The notes under the pieces are model-generated. The model was not told the DNA's origin, did not search any database, and saw only the letters and a program-made list of their open reading frames with translations. DNA of 64,000 nt from Candidatus Eiseniibacteriota bacterium (GTDB lineage: Bacteria > Eisenbacteria > RBG-16-71-46): positions 96,001 to 160,000 of the forward strand of contig JBBRLX010000006.1 of assembly GCA_038231135.1 (NCBI GenBank), in the 5' to 3' direction. The translations under genes and the position numbers were made by a program. Positions 4,917 to 24,817 of this stretch are shown here, piece by piece; the first letter of the stretch is position 1, and the number at the start of each line of letters is the position of its first letter.

Positions 4917-7900
4917 CTACTGCCCCGTCAGCACCACGCGTCCCGTCCGGACGCCTTCGCGCGCCTCGAGCCGGTAGAAGTACAGCCCCGGCCGCAGGCT
5001 CAGGCCCCGGTCGTCGGTCAAATCGATGCCGAGGTGATGCTCGCCCGGATCGAGTTGCGCTTCGTCCAGCAGGCGCCGTATGCGGCGGCCCGAGGTGTCG
5101 TACAGATCGGCGCGGACGGATTCGCGCGCGGTCGTGGTGAAGTGCAGCGTGGCGTGTCCATAGACGGGGTTCGGCGTCATGCGAGCGCCGAACACCAGCC
5201 CGCCGGGGGTAATCGCGGTGGTGACGTCGTCACCCGCCCTGCCCATGGCGAGCGCCGATGAGTTCGCGACCACGTTGATTCCCACGTCGTCGACGAGGAA
5301 CGTCTCGCCGGCGACGACCGGGGCGTCGAGCACCTGCATGTCGAGAGTGTTGTTTGCGCCACCGGTGACGACGTCGACGCTCACGAACTGCCACACCGGC
5401 GACAGCGTCACGGCGGCGGACTGGATCGTGGTGCCGACCTGGACGCCGGCGGGCGTGTACTCGCGAACCTTGATGCGCACCTGCCCCGTGTTGGACGGCG
5501 AGCGTACCCAGGCGGCGAACCGGTAGCGGGTCCCTGCCACGGGGATCGACATGATCCAGTTGGGGCTGTCGTTGAGACCCATGGAGGCGGTGCCGGTAGT
5601 GGTGGCGCCCCGGACTTGCACGGCGAAGCTGTCGACGCGCCCGCCCGCGACCCGGGTGGTCGTGGCGCTGCCGGCGCCGTTCCAGCCGTTCAGATTGGTC
5701 TCGAATGTCGGATTGCCGCACAGGTTGCGGTCGGCAGGCGGAATCACGCCCTGCCCGGGGCTCACGGTGATCGCGAGCGTCGCCGAGCCGGACATGGCGT
5801 TCACCGCCGTGAACGTCACGGAGTAAGGAGTCGAGCGCGACGCTCCGCCCAGCGGCGTCCACGTCAGCGTGCCTCCGGTGCGCGTGGCGTTGGGCGTGAA
5901 CTCGGCGTCGTTGCCGGCGGGCAGACCCGTCAGGCCGGCCGTCAGCGAGGCGATCGCGTCGGAGTCGGGATCGGCGGCCGCAATGACCACCGTCAGCGTC
6001 TGGCCCTCGGCCACGCTGGCCGTGGCCGGCGACGTCACCACCGGCGACCGGTCGACGTTCGCGACGGTGATGGACGTGGTGGCGGATCCGGACTGCGTGT
6101 TCGACGCGGTGAACGTCACCGTGTAGGGGGTGGCGCGGCCGTCGAACCAGCCGGGGGTCCATGTGAGCGTGCCCTGGGTGTGCGCGGCGTTGGTCACGAA
6201 CGACGCGTTGTTGCCGGCGGGCAGTCCCGATACGGCGAGTGACGTGATCGCCTGGCTGTCGGGATCGCTCGCGGTCACGGTCACGGTGAGCTGGCCGTTC
6301 TCGGTCGCGGTCGCCGTGGGCGGTGCGAGCACGACGGGCAACTGGTCCGCGCCCGGCAGCAGGGTGATCGAGACGTCGTCGGTCTGGAACACCTCGCCGG
6401 CGGCGACCGGGTAGTCGCTCAGTTCGAGATCGATCGTCGAGCCGGCCTTGAGCGTTACGAAGTCGACGGACATCAACTGCCACGCAGCCGTCAACGGAAT
6501 CGCATTCGAGTACACCACAGCGCCCTGCAGCACGCTGTTCGAATACTCGCGCAACTTGAGCTTGGTACTGCCATGACTCGACGCCGACCGCACCCAGGCG
6601 CTGAAGCGGTACCGCGAGCCTGCCGCGGGCGACGACGCCACCCAGTTGGGCTGATCGCCGATGCCGAACGTGGCGGTGGCGGCCGCAGGAGACCGCATTT
6701 CGAGCGCCCAGCCGCCGTCATGGCCGCCGGCGACGCGCGCCAGCGTGGCGCTCGCGGTGGACTGCCAGCCGGCGATGTCGGTCTCGAACGACGGGTTCGC
6801 GCACAGGTTGGGCGGCGGCGGCGCGGCCTGAACGGTGATCGCGGTCACGGCCGAGCCGGTGAGCGCATTCGCAGCGCCGAAGCTGACAGGCCAGGGGCCG
6901 GGGCCATCGTAGTAGGCAGGCGTCCAGGTGAACGTGCCGGACTTCTGGTCGGAGGCCGGCGTGAACGTGGCAGCGGCTCCCGCGGGCAACGCGCCGAGGT
7001 TCGCGGCGAGCGACGTGATCGCGTCGCCATCGGCGTCGGCCGCCGTCACCGTGATGGACAGTGGCTGGCCCTGAACGACGGTGGCCGTGGCGGGAGCCGT
7101 CACCACCGGCGCGCGGTCGACATTCGCGACCGAAATCGTGATGGAGGCGGTCGCGATCAGCGCGTTGGCGGCCGTGAACGTCACGACATAGGGGCCGGGC
7201 GCGTCCGCGAACGACGGCGTCCACGTCAGGCTGCCGGCGGTGTTCGAGGCGTTGGGTACGAACGTGGCGTTGTTGCCGGCGGGCAGGCCGGCGAGCGCCG
7301 CAGTCAGCGAGGTGAGAGCGTCGCCGTCGGGATCCGACGCGGACACGGTCACCGTCAGCGGCTGGTTCTCGGTCGCGGTTACGCCGGCCGGCACGGTCAG
7401 CACCGGCGCGCGATCGGCGGGGGTCACGCTGATATCGGTGACGGCCGAGCCGCTGAGTGCGTTGGCGGCGGTGAACGTCACGGTGTAGGGCCGGGCGCTG
7501 TCCGCCAGCGTCGGGGTCCACGTGAGCGTGCCGGTCTTGTGCGAGGCGCTCACGACGAACACCGCGTCGTTGCCGGCCGGCAGCGCCGACAGGTCCGCGG
7601 TCAGCGTGGCGATCGGGTCGAGGTTGGGATCGGCCGCCGTCACGCTGAGCGTGAGCTTCTGGCCCTGGACGACCGACGCGGTCGCCGGCGCCGTCACCGA
7701 CGGCGGCGCGTCCACATTGGTGATGGTGATCGAGGTCTGTGCCGAAGCGCTCAGGCCATTCGCCGCGGTGAACGTCACGACGTAGGGGCCGGAGCCGTCG
7801 GTGGGACCCGGCGTCCACGTCAAGGTCGCTCGGGTGTTGTCGGCGTTCGGGGTGAACGTGGCGCCTCCCGCGGAGGGCAGCGTGCCCAGATCGACGCCGA

Positions 7901-10421: not shown

Positions 10422-10988
10422 GTCCACGCTCCTGAGGCACCGTCCATGGCACGGTGAACTTTGGATGGGAATACAAAACGGCACGCGCGGCGTTGCCCTG
10501 TAGTTGAACAAAGCGGTCGCCGCGTTCGATACCTGCGAGGTCTCTACAAAGCCGTCAACGCAACTTCCGTACCCTGGGGTCCGGACCGCGGACGCGACGG
10601 CTGCCAAGCAATTTGCCCGGGTTTCCTCTCGGGAAACCTTTGGAAATCCGGAGGAATCGTCGAGATTCACGACAATTGCGCTGGGTAGTCATGCGATTTG
10701 AGTGCAGTCTGGCCAGGGTTCAATTGGGTCTGTGGCAGTTCGCCACAGTCGCATCCGGAGTCCCCCGGATCGGCGGGGGAGGGAGTCCACCCCGGCTGGG
10801 GGAATTCACCCGTCGCTTGCGCCATGAGGCACGGGTCCCGTACCGCGATGACGCGCGCCGGCCGCGGCTCACGGGACAAATCGGGCCGTGGAGTGATGTA
10901 TGATCGTGTCCGAATCGGAAGCATAATCGTGACCCCTCGAGCGCCAGCGCGAGCCGGGCGATCATGGCCGCTGGGAGCTCCCACATTC

Positions 10989-12353
10989 ATGCCGGTGCAT
11001 TTCGCTGAAGACGATGCCGGTGCGGCGCCGCGGCGGTTCGCGCAACGCGTAATGCTGCTCGGGGTCGTGGTGGTGTCGGCGCTCGCACTCGCGATCCCGC
11101 GATTCCACAACGACACGGCCGGCCCCGGTCCCGATCTGCGGGGCATCCAGGTCGCACCCGCGCCCGTGGGGACGCTCGGTAGGATGGCCCCCGACAGCGC
11201 CGTCGTGATCGTCTATGGCGACAGCCGCACCGGGCATCGGGTGCTGACGCAACGATCGGGCGCCCGGATGCTGTACGAGGCGGCGCAATCGCATCGTCCG
11301 TCGATGTGGCTCGCCGGGCTCGAGAATCTGCCGGCGACGGCGCTCGAGGTCGTGTACCCGGACTTCATGGGTTTGCGCGACGTGTGGTCCACGTTCGTCA
11401 GCCATCGATTCACAGGCGGCAATCAGCCGGGCGTGCTCCGCGCGCTCGAGGCCAACACAGCGGTCGATTTGATCGTGAACACCGGCGACCTGGTGGAGGA
11501 CGGCCGGCAGCACGTGCAGTGGGAGGAGTTCGCCGGGTCCCATGCGGCGTTGCGCAACCTCGCGCCGTTCGTCGCCGCCCCCGGCAACCACGAGGCGCTG
11601 TGGAAGGCCGCGGCGCGGCGGAACTGGGACGCGATCATGGGGCCGCCGCGCGCGCCATTCAGCTACTGGTCGTCCGTGGCCCTCGGTCGGCTGGCGCGGT
11701 TCGTCATCCTCGACAGCAACCTGTTCACGGATCCTCACGACCACTATCCGCCGGCGCTCGAGCAGGCGCTCGTCGACGAACAGCTCGCGTGGGCCGACTC
11801 CATGCTCGCCGGTCCCGAGCGGTTCAAGTTCGTGGTGCTGCATCATCCGCTGGTCACATCGGGGCACCACTGGGACGAATGGACATCGCAGGACGAGCAC
11901 CCGGCCCAGGACCGCCGCATCCAGCTGCTCGAGATCCTGAGGCGCCGCCACGTCACCGCGGTGCTCGCGGGCCACGAACACCTGTTTCAGCGGAGCTGGA
12001 TCTCGGAGCCCGGCGGCGGCGGATTGTGGCACATCACCACCGGCGGTGGGGGATCGCCGCTGCACTATGTGACCGACGACGATCGCCGGCGGGCCCGGAC
12101 GCAGTCGCTGCCGGACTCGGCGGCGATCGGCGAGATGTTCCCCGAGCAGTCGGTCTACCACTATTGCCGGCTCGTGCTGCGGCCGGATCCCGCGCCCGGC
12201 ATGGCGGCCGCCGAGTTGCGCATCTACCGGGTCGACAGCGCCGGCGCGGCACGGTTGATCGACACCGTGGATCTCGCGTCGCCGCCGGGCGGGCCGGCGG
12301 TGAGCGCCGCCGATCATTCCCCTTTACGCAGGCGGAGTCCGGGCCTACCGTAA
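10989..12353 (+). CDS. Exported/membrane-anchored calcineurin-like metallophosphoesterase (start uncertain)
   Basis: YGDSR, NTGDLVE, PGNHE, VLHHP, AGHEH, TGGGG motifs; N-terminal hydrophobic segment. Confidence 0.85.
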   Translation: MPVHFAEDDAGAAPRRFAQRVMLLGVVVVSALALAIPRFHNDTAGPGPDLRGIQVAPAPVGTLGRMAPDSAVVIVYGDSRTGHRVLTQRSGARMLYEAAQSHRPSMWLAGLENLPATALEVVYPDFMGLRDVWSTFVSHRFTGGNQPGVLRALEANTAVDLIVNTGDLVEDGRQHVQWEEFAGSHAALRNLAPFVAAPGNHEALWKAAARRNWDAIMGPPRAPFSYWSSVALGRLARFVILDSNLFTDPHDHYPPALEQALVDEQLAWADSMLAGPERFKFVVLHHPLVTSGHHWDEWTSQDEHPAQDRRIQLLEILRRRHVTAVLAGHEHLFQRSWISEPGGGGLWHITTGGGGSPLHYVTDDDRRRARTQSLPDSAAIGEMFPEQSVYHYCRLVLRPDPAPGMAAAELRIYRVDSAGAARLIDTVDLASPPGGPAVSAADHSPLRRRSPGLP

Positions 12354-12371: not shown

Positions 12372-13163
12372 ATGGCGCGCCGATCGGGTGCAGGGCCGGA
12401 CCGGGTCCCACGTTCCTCGACCGGGTTCGGAGTGGCAGTGACCGCACGCATCCCATTGTTCGAATTCATGCCGTACGGAGCACCCGAGCTGCATGAGGCG
12501 TCGCACCGCCACATGTTCCGCGCGCTGGCCGCCGCGAGTCTCGTGTGGGTCTTTGTGTTCGCGGCGGGCGTGATGACCGGCGCCCTGCCCGCGCCGGCGA
12601 CTCGTTTCGTGACACCGACGGTCGAAGTGCTGCTCGCTCCACCGCCGCCCATGCTGCCGCCACCGCCGGCCCGGACCCAGCCGATCGCGCCCGCGACCTT
12701 GTCGCGTGCGCACGGCGCCATCATCCCGGTGATCGACGAGCCGCCACCGCCGCCTTTGGCTCCGGACTGGCCGGGTGGCATCCGCGATGCGCAGGGCCTG
12801 CTGGGCGGCGAAGCCGGCGACGCGCCGCCCGTCACCGATCGCGGCGTCGTGGCCGAGCCGCCGCTGCCGAATCTTGGCGACAAGGTGCGCACCGACGAGC
12901 TGCCGGTCCTCGTCACCCTCAACCAGCCCGAGTATCCGGACATCGCGCGCGAAGCCGGCGTAGAGGGTCTCGTCGTCGTCCACGTGCTCGTCGGCCGGGA
13001 CGGTCGCGTGATCGACGCGCGGCTCGACGCGAAATTCTCGGTGCCGATGCTCGACGCCACGGCGCTGGCGTCCGCGCGCAAGCTGGTGTTCCAGCCCGCG
13101 ATCGTGGACCACCATCCGGTGGCGGTGTGGGTCGAAATGCCGTACCGGTTTCACCTGCATTGA
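12372..13163 (+). CDS. tonB: Energy transducer TonB (TonB_C) protein; start may be ~12438
   Basis: TM anchor, Pro-rich linker, PEYPDIAREAGVEGLVVVHVLVGRDGRV...FQPA...PVAVWVEMPYRF. Confidence 0.8.
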   Translation: MARRSGAGPDRVPRSSTGFGVAVTARIPLFEFMPYGAPELHEASHRHMFRALAAASLVWVFVFAAGVMTGALPAPATRFVTPTVEVLLAPPPPMLPPPPARTQPIAPATLSRAHGAIIPVIDEPPPPPLAPDWPGGIRDAQGLLGGEAGDAPPVTDRGVVAEPPLPNLGDKVRTDELPVLVTLNQPEYPDIAREAGVEGLVVVHVLVGRDGRVIDARLDAKFSVPMLDATALASARKLVFQPAIVDHHPVAVWVEMPYRFHLH

Positions 13164-13525: not shown

Positions 13526-14908
13526 ATGAATGCCATCGCACTCGCGATCCTGCTGCTGTCCGTGTCCGTGTCCCCCGTCGGCGCTGCCGCGCCTGCGGAT
13601 TCGGACCGAGTGTCCGACCGCGCGAGCGCACCGCCGATTGCGGAGAACGCGGACAGCCTCGCAGCGTCCTATGCAGCGCCCTGGAATCCGCCGCGGCCCC
13701 TGCTCGCGCGCCGGCCGTGGGAGCGGGCGATGCTGTTGCCCGGGCGCATCATTTCGCTGCCGCTATCGGGCCTGGGATACCTCACGCGGCGCTCCATGCT
13801 CGTGATCGAGGACAGCGGCCGGGTGCCGATGGGCCCGCAGCCGCCGCGCGCGAAGCACTCGCCGTCCGTGGCGGTCGGATTGTCCCACTTCGGCGATCGC
13901 ACGGGCGTAGGGCTGTCGCTGGAGCTGCGCACCCCGGAGCCGCGCCGCGAGTTCGTGCCACGATTCGGCGTCCAGTACTCAGCCACGACGCATTTTTATA
14001 ACCGCACGCAGGCCACGCTGACGAGCGGCCCCGCGAGCCTTCAGTATGCATATGAGTGGCGCCCGCAGGAGCAATTCCATGGCATCGGTCTCGAGAGCGC
14101 CGAGGACAGCCTGTCCGACTATGCCATCGAGTTCGAGACGGCGCGCGCGGGACTCACCAGAGCCTGGGGCCGGGACCCGGATCGCAATCAGCCCCGGCTG
14201 ACCCTCAATGCGTGGGGCGGCCCGCGCAGCGCCCTCACCAGCACCGGCCGCGACGCCAGGCAGGTGCCGTTCGACCGCCGCTTCCCCGGGCTGGCCGGGC
14301 TCACGCTCGGACGGCGCGTCGAGCACCTGACCTACGGCGCCGCGATCAAGCTCGACGAACGTCGGGGCGCTCCCCACTGGAGCCGCGGCGGCGCGCTGAC
14401 GCTGGCGGCGGAGAACTTCACGGACCCGGTGCGCGCGCTGGCGCTCCACGATGCCGCCGCGACCGGAGCGGGGTTCCGCCGCTTCACCGGCCAGCTCGAC
14501 GTGGGCACCTCGTTCATGCGCGACCCGCGCTCCCTGCGGCTGATGGCGAAGGTCGTCGATCAGCAGGTCGACGCGCGCGCGGACCGGTTCCTGGTGGCCG
14601 ATCTGGCCACGCTCGGCGGCCGCGACGGACTGCTGGGTTACTCGCCAGGACGGTTTCGTGACAAGGACCTGCTGCTCACGCGGCTGACGTATGTGTTCCC
14701 GCTCGCGCGGCGGTTCGAAGTCGATCTGCATTCTGAGTTCGGCGGGGTCTATGGCGACGTGTGGCACGACGTCCGGATCGGCGGGCTCAAACACTCGTTC
14801 GGCATGTCACTGAGGGGACGCGGGGATCGCACTGCGCGCGGGGCGGTCGGATTCGACATCAGCCCCGAATCGATCCGGATCAACTACACACTGGGGGTGC
14901 CGGAATGA
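13526..14908 (+). CDS. Omp85/BamA-TamA-like outer-membrane beta-barrel without obvious POTRA domains
   Basis: Signal peptide; amphipathic beta-strands; LATLGGRDGLLGYSPGRFRD resembles the Omp85 loop-6 LGG..(V/L)RGY motif. Confidence 0.7.
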   Translation: MNAIALAILLLSVSVSPVGAAAPADSDRVSDRASAPPIAENADSLAASYAAPWNPPRPLLARRPWERAMLLPGRIISLPLSGLGYLTRRSMLVIEDSGRVPMGPQPPRAKHSPSVAVGLSHFGDRTGVGLSLELRTPEPRREFVPRFGVQYSATTHFYNRTQATLTSGPASLQYAYEWRPQEQFHGIGLESAEDSLSDYAIEFETARAGLTRAWGRDPDRNQPRLTLNAWGGPRSALTSTGRDARQVPFDRRFPGLAGLTLGRRVEHLTYGAAIKLDERRGAPHWSRGGALTLAAENFTDPVRALALHDAAATGAGFRRFTGQLDVGTSFMRDPRSLRLMAKVVDQQVDARADRFLVADLATLGGRDGLLGYSPGRFRDKDLLLTRLTYVFPLARRFEVDLHSEFGGVYGDVWHDVRIGGLKHSFGMSLRGRGDRTARGAVGFDISPESIRINYTLGVPE

Positions 14909-16299
14909 GCCGCTCGATCGCAGGCGTGATGCTGGCAGTGCTCCTCGCCGGCACGGGTGCCGCGGGCGCGATCGCACGGGCGGCCGATACGACGAAGGAG
15001 CACGCCACGGCACCGGGCGCCGCGGCCGCGCGTGATTCGGGCTCGGCCAGGCATGCCGGCCCCGAGCCACATCCCTATTCCTATGCCTACGACATACTCG
15101 ACAACAGTTTCGTGCGACCGGCCACCCGGGTGCTCGACGTGGCACTGCTGGCGCGCAAGCTGACCGGCAATCTCCGCGAGGCGGCGAACATCGACGACCA
15201 GGACCAGGTGCGGCTGCCGAGCACCTGGTGGCAGCCGCGCCTGGGGTTCCGCCCGGTGACGGTCGCGCAGATGCTCACCGGCCCGGGGCCCGGCACCGGT
15301 CCCGCCCCCGGCAAGTGGACGGTGACGAAGGCCAAGGACCAGGGCGTGACGCCGGGATTCCAGATCGAGGATTCACACGGGGACAAGTTCCTGCTCAAAT
15401 TCGATCCCGTGGGATGGCCCGACCTCGCGTCCGGCGCCGCCGTGATCGGCAGCCGCCTCATGTGGGCGGCCGGCTACAACGTGCCCGACGACGCGATCGG
15501 GCAGTTCCGCCCCGAGGATCTCGAGATCAAGCGGGGCGCGACCTACACCGACGCCAACCGCCGCAAACAGCCGATCAACGACGCGTACATCCAGCAACTC
15601 CTCGCGCGGGTCGCGCGTCAGCAGGACGGCAGCTACCGCTGCATCGCGAGCCGGATGCTCGATGGCAAGCCGCTCGGGCCGTTCGAATATCATGGCCGCC
15701 AGCGCGACGATCCCGAGGACCGGATTCCGCACGAGCTGCGGCGTGAGCTGCGGGGGCTGTGGACGGTGTGCGCGTGGCTCAATCACGCGGACAGCCGCGG
15801 CCCGAATACGCTCGACATGTGGGTCACCGATCACGGCCGGTCGTTCGTACGCCACAACCTGATCGACTTCAGCGCCATCCTCGGCGCCGGTGCGACCGGC
15901 AAGCGGGCGTACGCCACCGGGACGGAGTACTATGTCGACTTCGGCGTGATGCGCCGGGAGTTGACGACCCTGGGGCTGCGGCCCTTCGCCTGGGAATCCT
16001 CGGTGGATCCAAACATGAAGGCAGTCGGGTTCGTGGAGTCCGCGACGTTCGATCCCGTCGGGTGGCGGCCCGACTATCCCAACCCCGCGTTCGACGCGCG
16101 CACCGAGCGCGACATTCGCTGGGGCGCCCGGATCGTGGCGGGCTTCACGGATGACCACATTCGTGCCGCCGTCGACGCCGCGAAGTATTCCGATCCGCGT
16201 GCGGCCGCGTACATCACCCGCGTGCTGATCGAGCGCCGCGACAAGCTGGTGCGGCGGTGGCTCGGCGCGGAGGCCGCTCGACTGCAGGCTGGCCGATGA
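14905..16299 (+). CDS. Exported atypical kinase-fold protein (HipA/PI3-4K/CotH-like), function unknown
   Basis: ATGA overlap with the upstream stop; signal peptide; KDQGVTPG loop, FLLKF, GYNVP, NHADSRGPN (D-x4-N), LIDFS. Confidence 0.65.
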   Translation: MSRSIAGVMLAVLLAGTGAAGAIARAADTTKEHATAPGAAAARDSGSARHAGPEPHPYSYAYDILDNSFVRPATRVLDVALLARKLTGNLREAANIDDQDQVRLPSTWWQPRLGFRPVTVAQMLTGPGPGTGPAPGKWTVTKAKDQGVTPGFQIEDSHGDKFLLKFDPVGWPDLASGAAVIGSRLMWAAGYNVPDDAIGQFRPEDLEIKRGATYTDANRRKQPINDAYIQQLLARVARQQDGSYRCIASRMLDGKPLGPFEYHGRQRDDPEDRIPHELRRELRGLWTVCAWLNHADSRGPNTLDMWVTDHGRSFVRHNLIDFSAILGAGATGKRAYATGTEYYVDFGVMRRELTTLGLRPFAWESSVDPNMKAVGFVESATFDPVGWRPDYPNPAFDARTERDIRWGARIVAGFTDDHIRAAVDAAKYSDPRAAAYITRVLIERRDKLVRRWLGAEAARLQAGR

Positions 16300-17831
16300 G
16301 GCGAGCCGCCACCGTCGCGATGCTGCTGATGCTGGTGGATGGGTGTTCGCATATGGGCCGGCTGCGGTATCAGCCGCAGACGGTATCGCCCACGCTCACG
16401 CACAAGGCCGGCGAGGCGCCGCCGGCGAATCCCGCGGCCATGCAGCTCCAGCCGCTGTTCGGCGACACGCTGATCGGGCTCGTGCCCGGCACGGCGGATT
16501 CCTCGCGGCGCTACCTGGGCCGGCTGCACACCGGATTCACCGCCGACACGCTCAACCTCATGCTGTTCGGAGACAATCGCCCCGGCTGGCGCGCGTCGCG
16601 GCTGAGCACCGAATACACCGCGCTACGGGAGATGTTTTCGCCGAACCTCGCGAAGATTGGCCGCGGGCTCGTGACGATTCCGTGGGCGCTGGTGAAGGGG
16701 CTCTATCCGGACCTGGCGCTGATCCGCGACATTCCCGACCGCCTTCGCAAGGCTCCGACCGCGGGTCGCGAACGGCAGGTGGTGAGCGCGATGCTGGCCA
16801 AGATCGATTCGCTGCAGGCGCACGGCCAGTCGGTGGCGGCGGTGCTCAACACCGGCGACCTGGTGTACGACGGCCGTTACCCGTCGACGTGGGAGCGGTT
16901 CCTGCGCATTACCCGCCCGCTGTCGTCGCGGGTGCCCTACTTCCCGGTGGCCGGCAACCACGAGCGTACGGACACCGAGGACGGCCGCGAGAACTGGCGC
17001 ACCGCGACCGGGCTGCCCGTCGGCGGCGACCGGCTCTACTACTGCTTCGACACCGCGGACGGCTGGCTGCGCGTCATTGCGCTCGATTCGAATCCGATCG
17101 TCGATCCCGGCAACCTCTGGACCCGCGAGGTGCAGATCAAGTATTCCGCCGAGGAGTTCGCGTGGCTGACGGAGCGCGTGAAGGAGCATCGTGGCCCGGT
17201 GATCGTGTTCATGCACCACCCGCCATTCTCGGCCGGCTTCCATCGCGTCGAATGGCAGCGCGACTCGGTGCTGTCGAAGCGCCGCGAGACCATGGTGGAG
17301 GACCTGCACAAGTCCGGCATCTCGATCATCGCCGGCGGCCACGAACACGCGTACGAACGCGCCCTGCTGCGGTGGCCGGACGCGGTGCTGATCGCGATCG
17401 TCTCCGGGGGCGCCGGCGCCCCGCTCTACCCGCTGCCGCCACGGGCGGAGGCCGCGCGGGTGATGAGCGAATACCACGTCGCGGGCTCGACGGTGCAGCC
17501 GGCAGACGTGTTCACCGCCCAGGCATTCCACTTCATCCATCTGCGGTTCTGGTTCGGCGGCGGCGAGTTCTACACCTACGCCGTGGATGACAAGGCGAAG
17601 GCCACGCTGATCGACAAGGTGCAGATCGACCTGTCGCGCTACGGCACGCCCAAGATCGACCAGTTCAAAATTCCGATCCCGCCGGCGAAGGGCCAGACGA
17701 GCGCGTCCGAGGCCACGGAGGAGAAGAAGAACCAGACCGTCCACCCGGTGACGAAGGCGGATTCGACCGCGAGCAAGCGTCTGCTGTCGAAACCGGCGCC
17801 CGCCAGGAAGACGACCAGGCGCAAACCCTGA
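16296..17831 (+). CDS. Exported (probable lipoprotein) calcineurin-like metallophosphoesterase, purple-acid-phosphatase-like
   Basis: ATGA overlap; LMLVDG-C lipobox-like site; FGDNR, NTGDLVY, AGNHE, FMHHP, GGHEH. Confidence 0.85.
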   Translation: MRRAATVAMLLMLVDGCSHMGRLRYQPQTVSPTLTHKAGEAPPANPAAMQLQPLFGDTLIGLVPGTADSSRRYLGRLHTGFTADTLNLMLFGDNRPGWRASRLSTEYTALREMFSPNLAKIGRGLVTIPWALVKGLYPDLALIRDIPDRLRKAPTAGRERQVVSAMLAKIDSLQAHGQSVAAVLNTGDLVYDGRYPSTWERFLRITRPLSSRVPYFPVAGNHERTDTEDGRENWRTATGLPVGGDRLYYCFDTADGWLRVIALDSNPIVDPGNLWTREVQIKYSAEEFAWLTERVKEHRGPVIVFMHHPPFSAGFHRVEWQRDSVLSKRRETMVEDLHKSGISIIAGGHEHAYERALLRWPDAVLIAIVSGGAGAPLYPLPPRAEAARVMSEYHVAGSTVQPADVFTAQAFHFIHLRFWFGGGEFYTYAVDDKAKATLIDKVQIDLSRYGTPKIDQFKIPIPPAKGQTSASEATEEKKNQTVHPVTKADSTASKRLLSKPAPARKTTRRKP

Positions 17832-17872
17832 GCCCGCACGGCATCGTGTCGTCCGGCCGCGGAGGAACGGTC

Positions 17873-19273
17873 ATGAACTCGACAGTGACGGAAGCCACGC
17901 CGGACCCGGTCGCCAGGCGCCCGCTCGACCGGTTCCTCGGCATCTTCGCCGACGTTCGTGGCGGGGAGGCCGGCACCGCGCTGTTGCTGATGCTCAACAT
18001 CTTCCTGCTGCTCGCGGCTTACTACCTGCTCAAGACGATCCGCGAGCCGCTGATCCTCACCGTCGCCGGCGGCGCCGAGGTCAAGAGCTACGCCGCGGCG
18101 GCGATGGCGGCGTTGCTGATCGTGGTCGTGCCGATCTACAGCGCGGTGGCGTCGCGGGTGTCGCGCGTGAAGCTCATCAACGGCGTGACGCTGTTCTTTA
18201 TCGCCTGCCTGATCGCGTTCTTCGCCCTCAGCCGTGCCGGCATCGAGATCGGCATCCCGTTCTTCATCTGGGTGGGCATCTTCAACCTGATGGTGATCGC
18301 CCAGATGTGGGCGTATGCGAACGACGTCTACACCGTCGACCAGGGCAAACGGCTGTTCGCGATCGTCGGATTCGGCGCGTCGCTGGGTGCGATCGCGGGG
18401 TCGTTCGTCACCGGGCAACTGGTGAAGCAGTACGGTCCGTACCCGTTCATGCTCGGCGCCGCCGCGCTGCTCGGCGTGTGCATGCTGCTCACGAACTGGG
18501 TGAACATGCGCGAGCGTCGCGCCCGCGGCGGCGCCCCGACTACCGCGGGTGACCGAGGCGCGACGGAGAACGCCGCGACGGAGAACGCCCCGGCGGCCGG
18601 TGCGGACGGCGCCGTGAAGGGCCGCAGCGGCTTCGCGCTGGTGTTCTCCGACCGTTACCTGCTGCTCATCGCGGTGCTCATGACGGTGTACAACCTCGTG
18701 AACACGAACGGCGAGTACATCCTCGGCAAGACCGTGGTGAACCTGTACACCGCGGCCCACGGCGCCGCGGCTGCGGGGGGCCTCAACGAGAAGAAGGTGA
18801 TCGGCGAGTTCTACGGCAACTTCTTCACGCTCGTGAACATCCTCTCCGCGCTGGTGCAGGCGTTCGTCGTGTCGCGGGTGCTCAAGAAGTTCGGCGTGCG
18901 CGTCGCGCTGCTGGTGCTGCCGATCGTGGCACTGGGCGGCTACGCCACGATGGCATTCATTCCGGTGCTGTGGCTGATCCGCTCCGTCAAGCTGGCGGAG
19001 AACTCGATCGACTATTCGTTGCAGAGCACGACGCGCAACGCCCTCTATCTCCCCACGAGCCGCGAGGCCAAGTACAAGGCGAAGCAGGCCAACGACACGT
19101 TCTTCGTGCGGCTCGGCGACGTCATCTCCGCCGGAGTGGTGTTCGCCGGCACGACCTGGCTGGGATTCGCGCCGCCGCAGTTCGCGCTGGTGAACGTCGG
19201 GCTGATCGTCGTGTGGCTGGTGCTGGCGGTCGCGATCGGCAGGCGGTTCCGCAGCATGGCCGGCACGGCCTGA
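17873..19273 (+). CDS. NTT/TLC (Npt1/Npt2-like) nucleotide translocase
   Basis: GGAGG RBS; ~12 TM; YYLLKTIRE, QMWAYANDVY..QGKRLF..G.GASLG, LYLPTSREAKYKAK...DTFFVRLGD. Confidence 0.85.
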   Translation: MNSTVTEATPDPVARRPLDRFLGIFADVRGGEAGTALLLMLNIFLLLAAYYLLKTIREPLILTVAGGAEVKSYAAAAMAALLIVVVPIYSAVASRVSRVKLINGVTLFFIACLIAFFALSRAGIEIGIPFFIWVGIFNLMVIAQMWAYANDVYTVDQGKRLFAIVGFGASLGAIAGSFVTGQLVKQYGPYPFMLGAAALLGVCMLLTNWVNMRERRARGGAPTTAGDRGATENAATENAPAAGADGAVKGRSGFALVFSDRYLLLIAVLMTVYNLVNTNGEYILGKTVVNLYTAAHGAAAAGGLNEKKVIGEFYGNFFTLVNILSALVQAFVVSRVLKKFGVRVALLVLPIVALGGYATMAFIPVLWLIRSVKLAENSIDYSLQSTTRNALYLPTSREAKYKAKQANDTFFVRLGDVISAGVVFAGTTWLGFAPPQFALVNVGLIVVWLVLAVAIGRRFRSMAGTA

Positions 19274-19337
19274 CGACATCGGTGGCCCGGTCCGGCGTGA
19301 TGCATCCCGCGCCGGCGCCTGGGGCGAGGGAGGCACG

Positions 19338-22055
19338 CTGAAGTTCCTGAACAAGTTCATCCGCCGCCTCGGCCTCGAGCGCGGCGAGGCCACGACGCTC
19401 GGCTTGATGGGCGTGCTCGTGGCCACGCTGATGTGCGCCTACACCATCGCCAAGGTCGTGCGCGACGCGCTGTTCATCACCGAATTCGGCGCGCTCAAGC
19501 TGCCGTATGGCTACATCGGCGTGGCGCTCGCCTCGGCCGGCTTCGTGTGGCTCGAGGGTCAGGTGGCCAGCCGGTTCACGCGCGTCGGCGCCTCGCGCTT
19601 CAACCAGTACGCGGCGATCGCGGTCAGCGCCGCGGCCGCGGCGGCGTTCCCACACGCGCCGCATCGCATCACCGGCGTGTTCTACGTGTGGACCGGCAGC
19701 CAGGCGATGATGCTGCTGCCGCACTTCTGGGTGCTCGCGCTCGACGTGTGGGACTCACGGCGGGCACGGCGGGTGTTCCCGATTCTCGGCGGCTTCGGGC
19801 TGCTCGGCGGCCTGGCCGGCGGCGCGTTCGCGGGCTGGGCGCAGCCGTTCGTGCACCGCATGGGCCTGCTGTGGGTGCTGTTCGGCCTGCTCGTGATCGC
19901 GCACGTGCTCACGCGGTTCGTCGAGGTCCATCGTGCCCACATGCCGGGGCCGGCGGATGCGGTGTCGGCGCTGTCGAGATGGGAGATCATCCGGCGGTCC
20001 AAGTACATCCGGATCTTCGCCGTCGGTCTCGCGCTGTCGGTGATCGTGTCCACGCTGGTCGATTTCCAGTTCAAGCTCTACCTGCAGCACGCCTATCCCG
20101 ATTCGCGCTCGCTCACCCAGTTCCTCGGCCGGTTCTACGTGGGATTGAACGCCGCCGCATTGCTGTTCCAGTTCGGCGTGGCGGGGTGGCTGATGCAACG
20201 GTTCGGACTCGCGGCGTCGACGGGTCTCCAGCCCACCGCGGTCATGGTGTTCGCCACCTGGGCCGCGATCAGCAGCGGCTGGTGGATCGTGATCGCGATG
20301 CGGTGGGTGCAGGGGGTGGTGTTCCAGACCCTCGGCAAGCCCGCGGCGGAGATCTACTACGCGGCCATCCGGCCGATCGAGCGGCGCTCCATCAAGCCCG
20401 CGATCGACACGCTGGTGGAGCGCTGGTCCGATGCCCTGGTGGGCGTGGTACTGGTGGTGGTGCTGCACGCGCTCAAGGCCCCGATGCCGGTGATCGCGAT
20501 CGGCACCGTGGCGCTGTGTGCGATCTGGCTGCTCGTGCTGCTGCGGTTGAACCGGTACTACGGCAAGGCGTTCCAGAACATCCTCAGCGCGCGCTGGATC
20601 GAGCCCGAAGCTTCTCCGGAATCGTTCAAGATTCCATCCGCGCGGCGGGCGCTCCGCGCGGCTCTGCAGTCGCCCGACGAGGCCCAGGTGGTGCTGGCGC
20701 TCAAGCTCAGCCGCAACGCGCGGGATGCCGGCACCGCCGCCGCCGTGCGCGCGTGCCTGGGGCATGCCTCGCCGGGCGTGCAACTGGCCGCCGTCGAGGC
20801 GATGGAGGCGCTGCGACTACGCGATGCCGATGGCGTGATCGAAGGGTTCCTGGGCGCCCGCTACGATCGTCTGCGCCGCGCGGCCGTCAGCTACCTGCTG
20901 TCGCGCAGCAGTCAGCCGGCGGAGCTCGCCGGCCGCCTGCTCGAAGGCGACGACGCGGCGCTGCGCCAGCACGTGCTGGATGTCATGAGCGAGCGCCCGC
21001 AGGAAGCCGAAGGCTGGGTGGCGCCGCAATGGATCGATGCGCGGATCGCCGCCGGCACGCCCGAGGATCTACTGCTGGCGGCGCGGGCGCTCGGCACGAC
21101 CGCCGCGGCCGGGGCGGTGCCCAAGCTGCGCCTGCTGCTGGCGCACGACGACCTCGAGGTCCGGCGCGCGACGTTGCAGGCCGCGGCCCGGCGGCCGCGG
21201 CCCCAGCTGCTCGAGATGCTGCTGCCCCTGCTGCTCGTGCCCGAGCTGAACTACGAGGCGCTCGATGCCGTGGCCGCGATCGGCGACCCCGCGGTGCCCG
21301 CGCTGCAGAAGATGCTCGAGGCCGCTCCGGACTCGCCGTGGCAGCCGATCGCGGCGCGCACGCTGGCGCGCATCGCCACATCCCGCGCCGCGGGCGTGCT
21401 GCAGAAGCTCGCGCGCAGCGGCGATCCGGGCATGCGCCAGGTCGGGTTGGAGTCGCTGGCCCGCATCCGCCTGCGCTCGGGCCAGCCGATGATCCCCCGC
21501 GGCCTCGCGCACCGGTTGTTTCTACGCGAGCTGGGTGACTATCGCGCCTGCCTCGAGCCCACGATCACGCTCGATGCCGTGCCCGCGGCGGAAGTCCGGC
21601 TGCTGTCCGAGAGCTACTGGGAGTCGTCGGAGCTGGCGCTCACGCGTGCGATCGACGCGCTCGCCTGCTGGTACGATCCACGCCCGCTGTTCGGCGTGAT
21701 CGGGCGGCTGACGTCGAAGGACGCCCGGCAGGCGGCGCCCGCGCTCGAATACCTGGGGCACGTGCTGCCGAGAAGCGTGTTCCGATCGGTGAGCCGGATC
21801 TTCGAGACTCAGGCGAGGGAGGACCCCGCCGGTCCGCCCGACGACGCGGCTGTCGCGGCCTGCATCCGGTCGGCGTGGGGCAGCGCCGATGCCTGGTTGC
21901 GCGCCTGCGCCGTGCGCGCGTCCCGCGCGATCCCGGGATTCGACACCGGGCTGTTCGCGGGCGGCGACGAGCATCCCGTGGTGCGTGCGGAGCTCGAGGC
22001 GCTCGCGCACGGCGGTCGCCGTGGAACGGCGCTGCCGGCCGGGGCGGCCGCATGA
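19338..22055 (+). CDS. NTT-like transporter fused to HEAT repeats; probable CTG start
   Basis: AKVVRDALF, HFWVLALDVWDSRRARRVFP, LVDFQFK, RRSIKPAIDT; C-terminal L..D..EVR.A / AIGDPAVPAL HEAT-like helices; GGAGG then CTG at 19338. Confidence 0.8.
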   Translation: MKFLNKFIRRLGLERGEATTLGLMGVLVATLMCAYTIAKVVRDALFITEFGALKLPYGYIGVALASAGFVWLEGQVASRFTRVGASRFNQYAAIAVSAAAAAAFPHAPHRITGVFYVWTGSQAMMLLPHFWVLALDVWDSRRARRVFPILGGFGLLGGLAGGAFAGWAQPFVHRMGLLWVLFGLLVIAHVLTRFVEVHRAHMPGPADAVSALSRWEIIRRSKYIRIFAVGLALSVIVSTLVDFQFKLYLQHAYPDSRSLTQFLGRFYVGLNAAALLFQFGVAGWLMQRFGLAASTGLQPTAVMVFATWAAISSGWWIVIAMRWVQGVVFQTLGKPAAEIYYAAIRPIERRSIKPAIDTLVERWSDALVGVVLVVVLHALKAPMPVIAIGTVALCAIWLLVLLRLNRYYGKAFQNILSARWIEPEASPESFKIPSARRALRAALQSPDEAQVVLALKLSRNARDAGTAAAVRACLGHASPGVQLAAVEAMEALRLRDADGVIEGFLGARYDRLRRAAVSYLLSRSSQPAELAGRLLEGDDAALRQHVLDVMSERPQEAEGWVAPQWIDARIAAGTPEDLLLAARALGTTAAAGAVPKLRLLLAHDDLEVRRATLQAAARRPRPQLLEMLLPLLLVPELNYEALDAVAAIGDPAVPALQKMLEAAPDSPWQPIAARTLARIATSRAAGVLQKLARSGDPGMRQVGLESLARIRLRSGQPMIPRGLAHRLFLRELGDYRACLEPTITLDAVPAAEVRLLSESYWESSELALTRAIDALACWYDPRPLFGVIGRLTSKDARQAAPALEYLGHVLPRSVFRSVSRIFETQAREDPAGPPDDAAVAACIRSAWGSADAWLRACAVRASRAIPGFDTGLFAGGDEHPVVRAELEALAHGGRRGTALPAGAAA

Positions 22056-22747
22056 TCACTCCCGTCGAGCGCGTGCTGATCCTGAAGGGCGCCGATCTGC
22101 TCAAGGACGTCGGTCCGCGCCACCTGCTGCGGCTCGCCGACGTCGCGCGCGAGATCCCGCTGACCAAGGGGGACACGATCTATCGCGAGGACGACCCCGC
22201 CGACGCGCTCTATCTCGTGGTCGAGGGCCGGGTGCGCATCACCGCCGGCGACCGCACGACGTCGGAGGTCGGTCCCGGCGAGGCGTTCGGCACCTGGGCG
22301 CTGGTCGACGATTCGAGCCGCGGGCAGCAGGCGGAGTGCCTCGAGGACGGCATCGCGCTCGCGCTCGGCCGGGACGAGTTCTACGAAGTGGCGGCGGGCG
22401 ATCTGACACTGCTCCAGCAGGTCGTGCGCGTGCTCGCCAAGCGATTGCGCGCGATGGTCTCGGACCGGCCTGGTGAGGCGCGGGTCGAGGGCGAAGGCAT
22501 CGAAAAGCCCGAGGCGAAGGTCGAGGCGGAGCAGGCAGCGGCCGGTGCAGCACCCGCGCCGCAGGGAACGGCCGCTGCGGGTGCGGCGCCCGGGCCCGCG
22601 GTGCCCGTGACGCCGGGTGCCGCGCTGGCGGCGGCGGCGCTCGGCCAGACGGTTCCCGAGGGCGCGTCTCCGGTCGCGGCGGCGCCCGCCGGCTCGAAGG
22701 ATGCGATCGATGAAGCCTACGACCGTCCGAACCCGGACCCGCTGTAG
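22052..22747 (+). CDS. Cyclic-nucleotide-binding domain protein with low-complexity tail
   Basis: ATGA overlap; ERVLILK..DLL, GDTIYREDDPADALYLVVEGRV, GPGEAFG..AL...SR. Confidence 0.85.
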   Translation: MITPVERVLILKGADLLKDVGPRHLLRLADVAREIPLTKGDTIYREDDPADALYLVVEGRVRITAGDRTTSEVGPGEAFGTWALVDDSSRGQQAECLEDGIALALGRDEFYEVAAGDLTLLQQVVRVLAKRLRAMVSDRPGEARVEGEGIEKPEAKVEAEQAAAGAAPAPQGTAAAGAAPGPAVPVTPGAALAAAALGQTVPEGASPVAAAPAGSKDAIDEAYDRPNPDPL

Positions 22748-22915: not shown

Positions 22916-24817
22916 GTGAAGACCGGTTCGCAGGATCCGAACGAACTCTTCCGCGCCCTCGTCGACGGGGTGCGGGACTACGCGATCTTCATTCTGGATC
23001 CCGCGGGCAACATCGTCACCTGGAACACCGGCGCGGAACGCATCAAGGGCTACCTCGCCCACGAGATCATCGGCAAGCACTTTTCGGTGTTCTACCCGCC
23101 CGATGCGCTGGCGGCCGACTGGCCGGCGACCGAACTGCGCGCCGCCACCAGCGAGGGCCGGTTCGAGGACGAGAACTGGCGCATTCGAAAGGACGGGACG
23201 CGGTTCTGGGCGAACGTCATCATCACCGCGATCCGCAATCCGGCGGGCGAGCTCATTGGGTTTTCCAAGATCACGCGCGACCTGACCGAGCGGATGGAGT
23301 CCGTCGCGGCGCTGCGCGACACGGAGTCGCGGTATCGTGGAATGTTCGAGGGCTCGCGGGACGGGGTGCTGATCGTGAACGCCGTCACGCACCAGATCAT
23401 CGACGCCAATCCGGCAATCGCCGTGCTGCTCGGCCGGTCGCGCGAGGAACTGCTCGGCAAGCTGCCGTGGGAGATCGGCCTGTTCCGTGACGAGGACGCG
23501 AACCGGACGGCTCAGCGCATGATGCTCGAGCAGGGCTATGTCCGGCACGACGACGTGGTCCTGTCGCGCGGCGATTCCGATCTCGAAGTCGAGCTGCAGG
23601 GCAACCGCTACGAAGTGGCGGGGCAGCCGGCGATCCAGTACAACGTGCGCGACATCCGCGAGCGCCGCCAGCTGGAGCGCGCCCTGCGGCAGACCGAGTC
23701 AATGGCCGAGGTCAATCGCCGCAAGGACGAGTTCCTCGCGCTGCTGTCGCACGAGCTGCGCAATCCGCTGTCGGCGATCACGAATGCGGTCGAGCTCCAG
23801 CGTATGCAGCCGGAAGCGGGCGGCGTGCCGGGGCAGATCCGCGCGATCATCGAGCGCCAGGTGGGCCGGCTGACGAGCATGGTCGAGGATCTGCTCGAGG
23901 TGTCGCGCATCGCGACGGGACGCCATCGGCTCAATCTCGAGTCCGTGGAGGGACGCGAGCTCGTGGAGCACGCCGTCGAGACCGTGCGCCCCCTGCGGGA
24001 GCAGAAGAATCACACACTGGCGCTGAAGTTGTCCGACGCTCCGATATGGCTCGACGCGGATCCGGTCCGGGTGGAACAGGTCGCGGTGAATCTGCTGACG
24101 AACGCCGTCAAGTACACCCCGACCGGCGGCCACATCGAGGTGTGCTTCGAGATCGAGGACGGCAAAGCGGTGCTGCGGGTGAAGGACAACGGCGTCGGGA
24201 TCACCGCCGATCTGCTGCCGCACATCTTCGAATTGTTCACCCAGGCCGATCGCACCCTGCACCGCTCCGAAGGCGGACTCGGCGTGGGGCTCACCGTCGT
24301 GCAGCGCGTGGTACAGCTCCACGGGGGAACGGTCGAGGCGAACAGCGCCGGCCTGAATCAGGGGGCGGAATTCATCGTGCGCCTGCCGGTCTCGAGCCCG
24401 CAGCACGGCGAGAGGCCGGAGGCCGATCGCGCGTCCGCCACCGGCAGGCGGCGCCTGCGCGTGGTGGTTGTGGACGACAACCGCGATTCCGCGGATACCA
24501 TCGCGATGCTGCTGGAGGGCTCGGGACGCGACGTCCGGGTCGAGTACACGGGGCCGGACGGGCTCGAGACCGTGCGGTCGTTCCGGCCCGATGCCGTGCT
24601 GCTCGACATCGGATTGCCCGGCCTCGACGGCTACGAGGTGGCGCGCGCGATCCGGCGGGACCCGGAGCTGAGCGGGGTCAAGCTCATCGCCGTGAGCGGC
24701 TACGGTCAGGAATCCGATCGCCGGCGGTCGAAGGACGCCGGGTTCGACGTGCACATGGTGAAGCCCGTCGAACCGCAGACGATCGAAGATGCGCTGAACG
24801 CGGTGACCGGGACCTAG
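22916..24817 (+). CDS. Hybrid sensor kinase PAS-PAS-HisKA-HATPase-REC
   Basis: DYAIFILD..WNTGAERIKGY PAS; SHELRNPL H-box; NLLTNAVKY, DNGVG, GLGVGL; VVDDN...LLDIGLP receiver. Confidence 0.95.
   Translation: MKTGSQDPNELFRALVDGVRDYAIFILDPAGNIVTWNTGAERIKGYLAHEIIGKHFSVFYPPDALAADWPATELRAATSEGRFEDENWRIRKDGTRFWANVIITAIRNPAGELIGFSKITRDLTERMESVAALRDTESRYRGMFEGSRDGVLIVNAVTHQIIDANPAIAVLLGRSREELLGKLPWEIGLFRDEDANRTAQRMMLEQGYVRHDDVVLSRGDSDLEVELQGNRYEVAGQPAIQYNVRDIRERRQLERALRQTESMAEVNRRKDEFLALLSHELRNPLSAITNAVELQRMQPEAGGVPGQIRAIIERQVGRLTSMVEDLLEVSRIATGRHRLNLESVEGRELVEHAVETVRPLREQKNHTLALKLSDAPIWLDADPVRVEQVAVNLLTNAVKYTPTGGHIEVCFEIEDGKAVLRVKDNGVGITADLLPHIFELFTQADRTLHRSEGGLGVGLTVVQRVVQLHGGTVEANSAGLNQGAEFIVRLPVSSPQHGERPEADRASATGRRRLRVVVVDDNRDSADTIAMLLEGSGRDVRVEYTGPDGLETVRSFRPDAVLLDIGLPGLDGYEVARAIRRDPELSGVKLIAVSGYGQESDRRRSKDAGFDVHMVKPVEPQTIEDALNAVTGT

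Follow-up and report, generated by a model that had tools for sequence, protein, structure and literature searches.

An operon for an Omp85 barrel, an exported kinase-fold protein and NTT-family carriers in Candidatus Eiseniibacteriota: a candidate system for phosphorylation in the periplasm

In a 64,000-nucleotide (nt) stretch of Candidatus Eiseniibacteriota DNA (assembly GCA_038231135.1, contig JBBRLX010000006.1, positions 96,001 to 160,000; hereafter the window), a cluster of six open reading frames, all on the + strand (13526-22747), encodes an Omp85 barrel, an exported protein of atypical kinase fold, a metallophosphoesterase, two carriers of the NTT/TLC family and a protein with a cyclic-nucleotide-binding (cNMP-binding) fold (genes 1 to 6, Table 1). 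The barrel and the kinase are the conserved core of the system, the carriers and the phosphoesterase are accessory parts, and structure prediction supports binding of the kinase to the periplasmic face of the barrel. We propose, with a confidence somewhat short of even, that these proteins run a carrier-fed phosphorylation cycle in the periplasm, in which the action of a barrel-docked kinase is reversed by an exported phosphatase.

An earlier interpretation of the same DNA (the sequence-only reading) had grouped the six genes as a candidate system. The layout that it described is real: every coordinate was checked, the genes are co-oriented, three junctions are coupled by ATGA overlaps (at 14905, 16296 and 22052), and the remaining two are gaps of 41 and 64 nt. 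Its functional interpretation was partly supported. Linkage and an exported kinase fold were both found, but the carriers and the phosphoesterase were not universal among related loci, and sensing of cyclic AMP (cAMP) was not supported.

The exported kinase-fold protein and its barrel partner

Genes 1 and 2 had no match in Pfam or NCBIfam and were assigned from structure instead. For the kinase the profile searches were negative at E 0.1, and no Fam20C, CotH or HipA profile was matched; a sequence search against solved structures returned two chance matches only, and named Atlas clusters reached only 0.82-0.84. The AlphaFold2 model of gene 2 has a predicted local distance difference test (pLDDT) score of 92.5. 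When 48161 chains were ranked against it, the top 14 (Z 10.0-13.9) all belonged to the atypical-kinase clade, the next chain had Z 7.2, and Foldseek concurred. Among the matches were CtkA (Z 13.9, root-mean-square deviation (rmsd) 4.0, 225 aligned), Hydra Fam20 (Z 13.1, rmsd 4.2, 255 aligned), CotH (Z 12.1, rmsd 4.2, 228 aligned), PI4KII (Z 12.0), actin-fragmin kinase (Z 11.9) and HipA (Z 10.3). These fold relatives are distant, at 7-13% identity and rmsd 4-5 Å.

A beta3 Lys (K165), the catalytic Asp of D296-x4-N301 and a metal-binding Asp (D321) were jointly present in 131/145 aligned sequences, with roles assigned from motif rather than from superposition; K144 is a further residue of note. 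An N-terminal hydrophobic stretch, scored by a hydropathy heuristic, was found in 138/140 full-length homologues as against 35/840 internal windows, and 58 of the 140 have a lipobox-like Cys. The family is thus exported, with an ATP-binding fold and catalytic residues, as the sequence-only reading had held in describing a kinase-fold protein with an export signal. On the model, gene 2 encodes an exported protein of atypical kinase fold that is predicted to be an enzyme. Its family comprises 2522 representatives at 50% identity, and the closest homologues (59-75% identical) are mostly labelled Candidatus Eisenbacteria. Among longer fused forms, three matches had an unannotated C-terminal domain and none was a fusion to a barrel or carrier, which is weak evidence. 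Three family members (P0126, P0127 and P0128) have a C-terminal domain of 450-600 amino acids (aa) that is Pfam-negative.

With Fam20C and Fam20B, Bacillus CotH, H. pylori CtkA, PI4KII and HipA, gene 2 shares the fold clade (Z 10-14) and the catalytic Lys/Asp/Asn/Asp set; with the atypical kinases of the secretory pathway and the extracellular space it shares a location, here predicted, outside the cytoplasm. Fam20 kinases depend on lumenal ATP delivered by a carrier. Unlike them, the gene 2 protein is modelled as bound to an Omp85 barrel within the periplasm of a diderm, and the carrier is of the NTT family.

The barrel was modelled with 16 strands (AlphaFold2, pLDDT 85.5) behind a signal peptide. 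Ahead of strand 1 there is just coil and a single helix (64-96), with no POTRA or other N-terminal domain. Foldseek placed TamA (E 2.4e-11), BamA and Sam50 at the top, and Pfam Omp85 was matched by 61/76 members of the barrel family, the gene 1 copy not being among them. The earlier call of a POTRA-less Omp85-like barrel therefore agrees with the model, the structural matches and the family matches, and the POTRA-less 16-strand architecture is shared with noNterm Omp85 proteins (PMC4104836; in Leptospira, PMC11358297). Loop 6 reads LLGY (family consensus LRGF), without the loop-6 Arg, and the C-terminus is GVPE, without a terminal aromatic; many distant relatives end in Phe. Because both features are missing the barrel is unlikely to be an insertase, and a role of BamA/TamA type, which goes with a loop-6 (V/L)RG(F/Y) Arg, POTRA domains and a C-terminal aromatic, is not supported.

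Modelling of barrel and kinase together predicted a complex at the periplasmic face of the barrel, with a score of 0.73 compared to 0.00 for the best of three controls; the mark used for this score was attained by 116/157 solved pairs and by 2/215 mismatched pairs. Contact agreement between runs was at least 91%, and partner pLDDT at least 85. The barrel residues in contact (N-terminal segment 45-70 and turns 331-335, 389-401 and 434-435) are all periplasmic by strand count. On the kinase side, segment 331-365, after the DF motif, touches the periplasmic turns, and the catalytic residues lie outside the modelled interface. Searches of the PDB found no comparable complex, and the word 'kinase' was not found in the available text of PMC4104836 or PMC11358297, on noNterm and Metallo Omp85. 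The barrel had been considered as a channel, a scaffold or a substrate; from the complex model, a scaffold for the kinase is the best reading.

Gene neighbourhoods, carriers and accessory proteins

The neighbourhoods of kinase homologues were compared in 80 loci, the best 80 of at least 579, a sample biased to close relatives. Neighbour annotation covered 85 + 150 + 31 proteins, with about 160 distal singletons left out. A barrel gene lies upstream of the kinase gene in 78/80 loci, one of these pairs being split by a transposase, and the two misses start at a contig end. Carriers were found in 31/80 loci (11/12 of the closest and 20/68 of the others; 13/39 of the loci of at least 19 kb). Several gene orders occur among these loci, whose records bear the labels of many phyla. 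Exported phosphatases are also recurrent and come from unrelated folds: metallophosphoesterases were found in 20/80 loci and PAP2 in 10/80, one record being a kinase-PAP2 fusion; cNMP-fold genes were present in 14/80. The conserved linkage that had been predicted was thus found for barrel and kinase, while carriers and phosphoesterases were frequent rather than universal. All five tested genomes with a carrier-free locus hold carriers elsewhere (5/5), in one case next to a second barrel-kinase pair.

Of 151 genomes of the phylum, 83 had the kinase and 90 a carrier: both were present in 75, the kinase only in 8, a carrier only in 15 and neither in 53. These counts include the unpublished genome G015, and kin among the genomes are not independent. 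The closest full-length NTT-HEAT type occurred in 53 genomes, 52 of which also have the kinase, and 40/65 of its genes lie within 10 kb of a kinase gene, many of the others being on short contigs. In the source genome (4.09 Mb) each of the three carrier genes has one of the two kinase genes within 10 kb, so the linkage is beyond chance. At the second locus of this genome (L001, 7774-14021, G000:C12), NTT-HEAT and cNMP genes run divergently to a barrel-kinase pair.

In L069, L081, L061, L111 and L043 the barrel-kinase pair is present two or three times, in tandem or inverted, which suggests pair-specific substrates. The kinase also occurs in five records labelled as normally monoderm groups (L036, L058, L072, L073 and L094), accompanied in four by the outer-membrane barrel; these records may be mislabelled.

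Both carriers exceeded the PF03219 (TLC) cut-off of 21 bits (62.1 for gene 4 and 29.5 for gene 5), a profile matched in 0/14 control genomes, and both matched solved NTT1 structures (9j3n, 9j3j; gene 4 profile match E 3.3e-27), in line with the previous assignment of gene 4 to the NTT/TLC family and of gene 5 as an NTT-HEAT fusion. The TIGR00769 score was 54.7, far under the cut-off of 387.2. AtNTT1 numbering was transferred by a constant offset of 84, which fits all four published residues. At the K527 site (gamma-phosphate/Pi), gene 4 has Asp416 and gene 5 Asp365, and the two were aligned in the profile-profile match of the carriers (probability 100). In gene 4 the E245 site is G135, the E385 site is kept as E281, and the K155 site is K71 only with a 4-residue gap. 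Family and fold are common to the carriers and to AtNTT1, PamNTT1 and C. pneumoniae NTT1. The plastid and parasite ATP/ADP translocases differ in that E245 is here replaced by Gly and K527 by Asp, and the host is free-living. Without two of the four residues needed by ATP/ADP translocases (E245 and K527), the carriers are, on sequence grounds, not ordinary ATP importers.

Charge reversal at this site has been studied in two characterised carriers. AtNTT1 K527E bound ADP and did not bind ATP (PMC3306366). In PamNTT1, K446E blocked phosphate transport and raised the Km for ATP import from 8.6 to 552 µM, while the Km for ADP import against internal ATP fell from 1401 to 29 µM (PMC2606016). The ratio of Vmax/Km for ATP-in over ADP-in/ATP-out, computed from the table of that paper, changes from 927 to 0.08. 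By analogy, an Asp at the K527 site fits a carrier that moves ATP out and ADP in and leaves phosphate behind.

The gene 3 phosphoesterase has all five metal motifs (GD, GDxxY, GNHE, HHP and GHEH), and its homologues conserve an N-terminal Cys (Cys18 in gene 3), so that it is probably a lipoprotein, as had been read from the sequence. Its best PDB match is a purple-acid-phosphatase-type diphosphonucleotide phosphatase (E 4.9e-6). The Tyr of GDxxY, a purple acid phosphatase ligand, is present in gene 3; its closest homologues carry T, D, N or E instead. Phosphoesterases of the loci fall into several subfamilies. The phosphoesterase upstream of the operon (Table 1) is 38-50% identical to those of L036 and L038-L041, compared with only 29-31% for gene 3, and belongs with the phosphoesterases that come immediately after the kinase in divergent-type loci. 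No phosphoesterase was found at the genome's second barrel-kinase locus. This upstream protein is probably part of the system, and was probably displaced from that other locus. A third copy of the gene 3 phosphoesterase (64% identity) lies at a contig start (L002, 222-1760, G000:C16), where its context is cut off.

Gene 6 had been read as a cNMP sensor. The cNMP-binding fold was confirmed, but the sensor role is doubtful, with a degenerate cassette (FGTWAL...R) followed by a low-complexity tail. The Glu (FGE) and Arg of the canonical cAMP-binding cassette occur together in 0/15 aligned family members (one unrelated 730-aa match was excluded); the L001 protein has the Glu and lacks the Arg. Because the full cassette is absent from all 15, a cAMP-sensor role appears unlikely, and we read the protein rather as a regulatory partner of the HEAT repeats. 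A module in which a cNBD gene begins only a few bases after an NTT-HEAT gene has been described (Major, Embley and Williams 2017, PMC5381601), and the same arrangement is found here. The available text of that paper assigns NTT-HEAT no function and does not connect it with any barrel, kinase or phosphatase, and the degenerate cassette of gene 6 lends no support to the cAMP binding that the paper suggests.

The start of gene 5 was taken as the CTG at 19338-19340, which lies behind gagggagg and gives an N-terminus matching relatives; the first ATG, GTG or TTG comes only at 19404, within the first membrane helix. The gap of 64 nt before gene 5 follows from this choice. The nearest homologues (L035 and L043) start with an ATG, four codons farther upstream relative to the R.LGL motif that they share with gene 5. 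A CTG start with a strong ribosome-binding site may hold the NTT-HEAT protein at a low level. A scan for promoters and terminators gave 0 promoters and 4 terminators, both no better than shuffled sequence.

Table 1. Genes of the operon and its flanks, in window coordinates.
Feature	Coordinates	Strand	Length (aa)	Remarks
Gene 1, Omp85 barrel, POTRA-less (noNterm-type)	13526-14908	+	460	
Gene 2, exported atypical kinase-fold protein	14905-16299	+	464	
Gene 3, calcineurin-like metallophosphoesterase	16296-17831	+	511	Pfam Metallophos, E 1.6e-13
Gene 4, single-domain NTT/TLC-family carrier	17873-19273	+	466	Pfam TLC and MFS_1
Gene 5, NTT-HEAT fusion carrier	19338-22055	+	905	Pfam TLC and HEAT_2; CTG start
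Gene 6, cNMP-binding-fold protein	22052-22747	+	231	Pfam cNMP_binding, E 1.6e-16
Second metallophosphoesterase, upstream	10989-12353	+		Start 10989 or 10896 uncertain; Pfam Metallophos
Proline-rich TonB C-terminal protein	12405-13163	+		Between upstream phosphoesterase and barrel
PAS-PAS-histidine kinase-receiver hybrid	22916-24817	+		168 nt downstream of cNMP gene

The TonB C-terminal gene was considered as a part of the system and rejected, no homologue being found in the 80 loci or L001. Further upstream, on the - strand (4917-10670), is the gene of an exported 1917-aa beta-helix protein, which has many Ig repeats and two CBM4/9 domains and ends in a sorting domain of FlgD/Por type.

The proposed cycle and its alternatives

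In the cycle that we favour, the Omp85 barrel would be a scaffold, and possibly a substrate route too, holding the exported kinase at the periplasmic face of the outer membrane. The kinase would move phosphate from ATP onto an envelope substrate that, judging from its fold relatives, could be a protein, lipid or glycan: Fam20C and CotH phosphorylate protein, PI4KII lipid and Fam20B glycan. A lipid may be kept in play by the recurrence of PAP2 and by a lipid-kinase gene in 3 loci. As the Asp at the gamma-phosphate site would suggest, an inner-membrane carrier would trade ATP out for the ADP product and take no phosphate back; exchange in this direction would also be favoured by an inside-negative membrane potential. 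The phosphate would be stripped off by the lipoprotein phosphoesterase here and by PAP2 at some other loci, and would return to the cell through the usual phosphate uptake. Flux would be regulated or reported by the NTT-HEAT protein together with its cNMP-fold partner, via protein contacts and not by binding cAMP.

Several observations weigh against this account. No nearby carrier was found in 49/80 loci (26/39 of the long ones), and the 8 phylum genomes with a kinase and no carrier match at E 1e-20 are of one family. Conversely, NTT-HEAT and cNMP genes occur without the kinase at L121, and in cyanobacteria, chlamydiae and oomycetes (PMC5381601). Beside kinase genes the Asp was present in 19/21 single carriers and in 9/17 readable NTT-HEAT proteins, the others having Lys or Arg; five further NTT-HEAT proteins were unreadable by residue pattern. 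The authors of PMC2606016 see ATP export by K446E impaired too, with ADP/ADP exchange fastest, and AtNTT1 K527E does not bind ATP (PMC3306366). The same Asp is found in PamNTT4, an NAD+/ADP exchanger (PMC5381601 supplement), which is the only characterised bacterial carrier seen with it. In the kinase, alphaC position 179 is acidic (Glu or Asp) in 122/145 sequences and is Ala in gene 2, where Asp173 may substitute; it is non-acidic in 31/116 close homologues (about a quarter). On the side of the cycle stand phosphate-uptake or Pho-type genes in 14/80 loci, as a raw count.

The PamNTT4 resemblance bears most on a salvage function. By motif gene 4 is PamNTT4-like, sharing the C-terminal motif that includes the Asp at the K527 site (compared by eye in the supplementary FASTA), although NTT substrates are not predictable from sequence according to PMC4256464. 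The kinase might then use outside ATP that arrives via the barrel or porins, or the phosphoesterase might trim incoming nucleotides, with the carriers importing diphosphate-type nucleotides (ADP, NAD+) rather than exporting ATP. We regard this as unlikely overall but as an explanation with real claims: the Asp favours ADP over ATP, and Pho-regulon-like and phosphate-uptake genes recur next to the barrel-kinase pair. PiT with DUF47 was found in 9 loci and PstCAB-PhoU in 2 (over NCBIfam cut-offs), and in one Acidobacteriota group a response regulator that matches PhoB best (under cut-off) lies downstream of the kinase in 6/6 tested. The periplasmic ligase Lig E has been proposed to run on nanomolar external ATP; that external ATP, at about 25 nM, is nevertheless under the Km of Lig E (bioRxiv 10.64898/2026.03.22.713542). 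A scavenger, moreover, needs no kinase, yet it is the barrel and the kinase that form the core, and the phosphoesterase is optional.

The modelled contact between kinase segment 331-365 and the periplasmic turns would also suit trans-envelope signalling, in which an external signal perceived by the barrel would turn the docked kinase on or off, and NTT-HEAT, acting as a transceptor, would read nucleotide turnover and relay it to cytoplasmic outputs (the cNMP-fold protein, a Ser/Thr kinase or a histidine kinase). A cytoplasmic Ser/Thr kinase family with an unannotated N-terminal part of about 200 aa was found in five loci (L050, L084, L090, L103 and L060); in 4/5 it adjoins a shorter carrier fusion (about 750 aa) and replaces the cNMP gene, and L060 stops at a contig edge. 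Genes of two-component type lie next to the carrier-cNMP pair at five related loci (L065, L068, L080, L088 and L094) and at 22916 here, but these are common neighbours and the tally is a raw one. The outputs also vary by locus, and many loci consist of barrel and kinase only. Signalling of this kind seems to us improbable as the main function.

Some kinase-fold enzymes do non-kinase chemistry, SelO and SidJ among them. Gene 2 could accordingly carry out nucleotidyl transfer, hydrolysis or a reverse transfer making ATP for import from an external phosphoryl donor, and the distance of its fold matches, the missing alphaC acidic residue in its subclade, and nearby PPK2 (3/80 loci) and pyrophosphatase (4/80) genes are consistent with this. 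The catalytic base D296, N301 and D321 nonetheless match those of true kinases, exported phosphatases are repeated partners and the carrier Asp disfavours ATP import, and we give such chemistry only a slight chance. Least probable is that the carriers are loosely associated neighbours with an unrelated job beside a self-sufficient barrel-kinase pair: carrier-free loci are in the majority, and none of 7 loci of a distant barrel-fused kinase-like family (some on short contigs) had a carrier, but the genes here are translationally coupled, both loci of the genome are linked in different orders, and the closest NTT-HEAT type is tied to the kinase in nearly every genome that has it and in most of its genes.

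Possible fused forms and wider meaning

Phosphoesterases beside two kinases led to phosphoesterase-Omp85 fusions of about 1200 aa, many named from Bacteroidota. They are the Metallo subfamily of Heinz and Lithgow 2014, whose barrels noNterm barrels resemble (PMC4104836), and in 113/120 the barrel matches the gene 1 family profile. Phosphoesterase and barrel form one chain there and are separate genes here. Between them lies an unannotated middle domain with a Gly-rich loop and an invariant D-x-D-R-H motif, whose nearest named Atlas clusters were CotH and HipA (0.76-0.77). Comparison with the kinase in hhalign gave a full-length alignment that placed D296 on the invariant Asp, at weak significance (E 0.0021, probability 13.5%). 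The hidden Markov model of the kinase matched 0/120 middle domains, and the reverse search gave E<10 in 54/150 as against 3 reversed sequences, none below 0.01. Together these results hint, weakly but consistently, at a phosphatase-kinase-barrel fusion. Fusions of about 900 aa, with a distant kinase-like domain and an Omp85 barrel and no phosphoesterase, were found in L124-L128, one with the variant D-K-D-R-H. The 61-genome sample behind the 7 carrier-free loci of this distant family consists mainly of kinase-barrel fusions and not of Bacteroidota Metallo-Omp85.

In a literature search whose coverage mostly left out subscription journals, no paper was found that joins an Omp85 barrel, an exported kinase and an NTT carrier. 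All parts but the kinase are from catalogued families without a known role, including noNterm and Metallo Omp85 and NTT-HEAT with cNBD. New in this analysis are the change of K527 to Asp, which can be read in two ways, the degenerate cassette of the cNMP-fold protein, the phosphate genes found nearby and the second phosphoesterase upstream.

On the long-standing view the periplasm contains no ATP, and the workings of envelope machines have been explained accordingly. The operon suggests, without proving it, deliberate phosphorylation in this compartment. Lig E is a precedent for an ATP-requiring periplasmic enzyme, with an unrelated fold and reaction; no dedicated carrier is proposed for it in the available text (bioRxiv 10.64898/2026.03.22.713542), unlike the carrier-linked operon described here.

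More tentatively than for the window itself, we suggest that many diderms have dedicated NTT export of ATP to the periplasm, by carriers in which replacement of the gamma-phosphate lysine would have reversed the transport (ATP out, ADP in and no phosphate). There a barrel-docked Fam20-like kinase would be set against an exported phosphatase, with the Metallo-Omp85 proteins of Bacteroidota as the fused form. If true, this would provide a first function for noNterm Omp85 barrels, for Metallo-Omp85 and for the NTT and NTT-HEAT carriers of free-living bacteria. Dedicated ATP export to the periplasm would be a bacterial counterpart of phosphorylation in the Golgi lumen, and would point to purposeful export of energy and to a new level of modification or signalling in the envelope.

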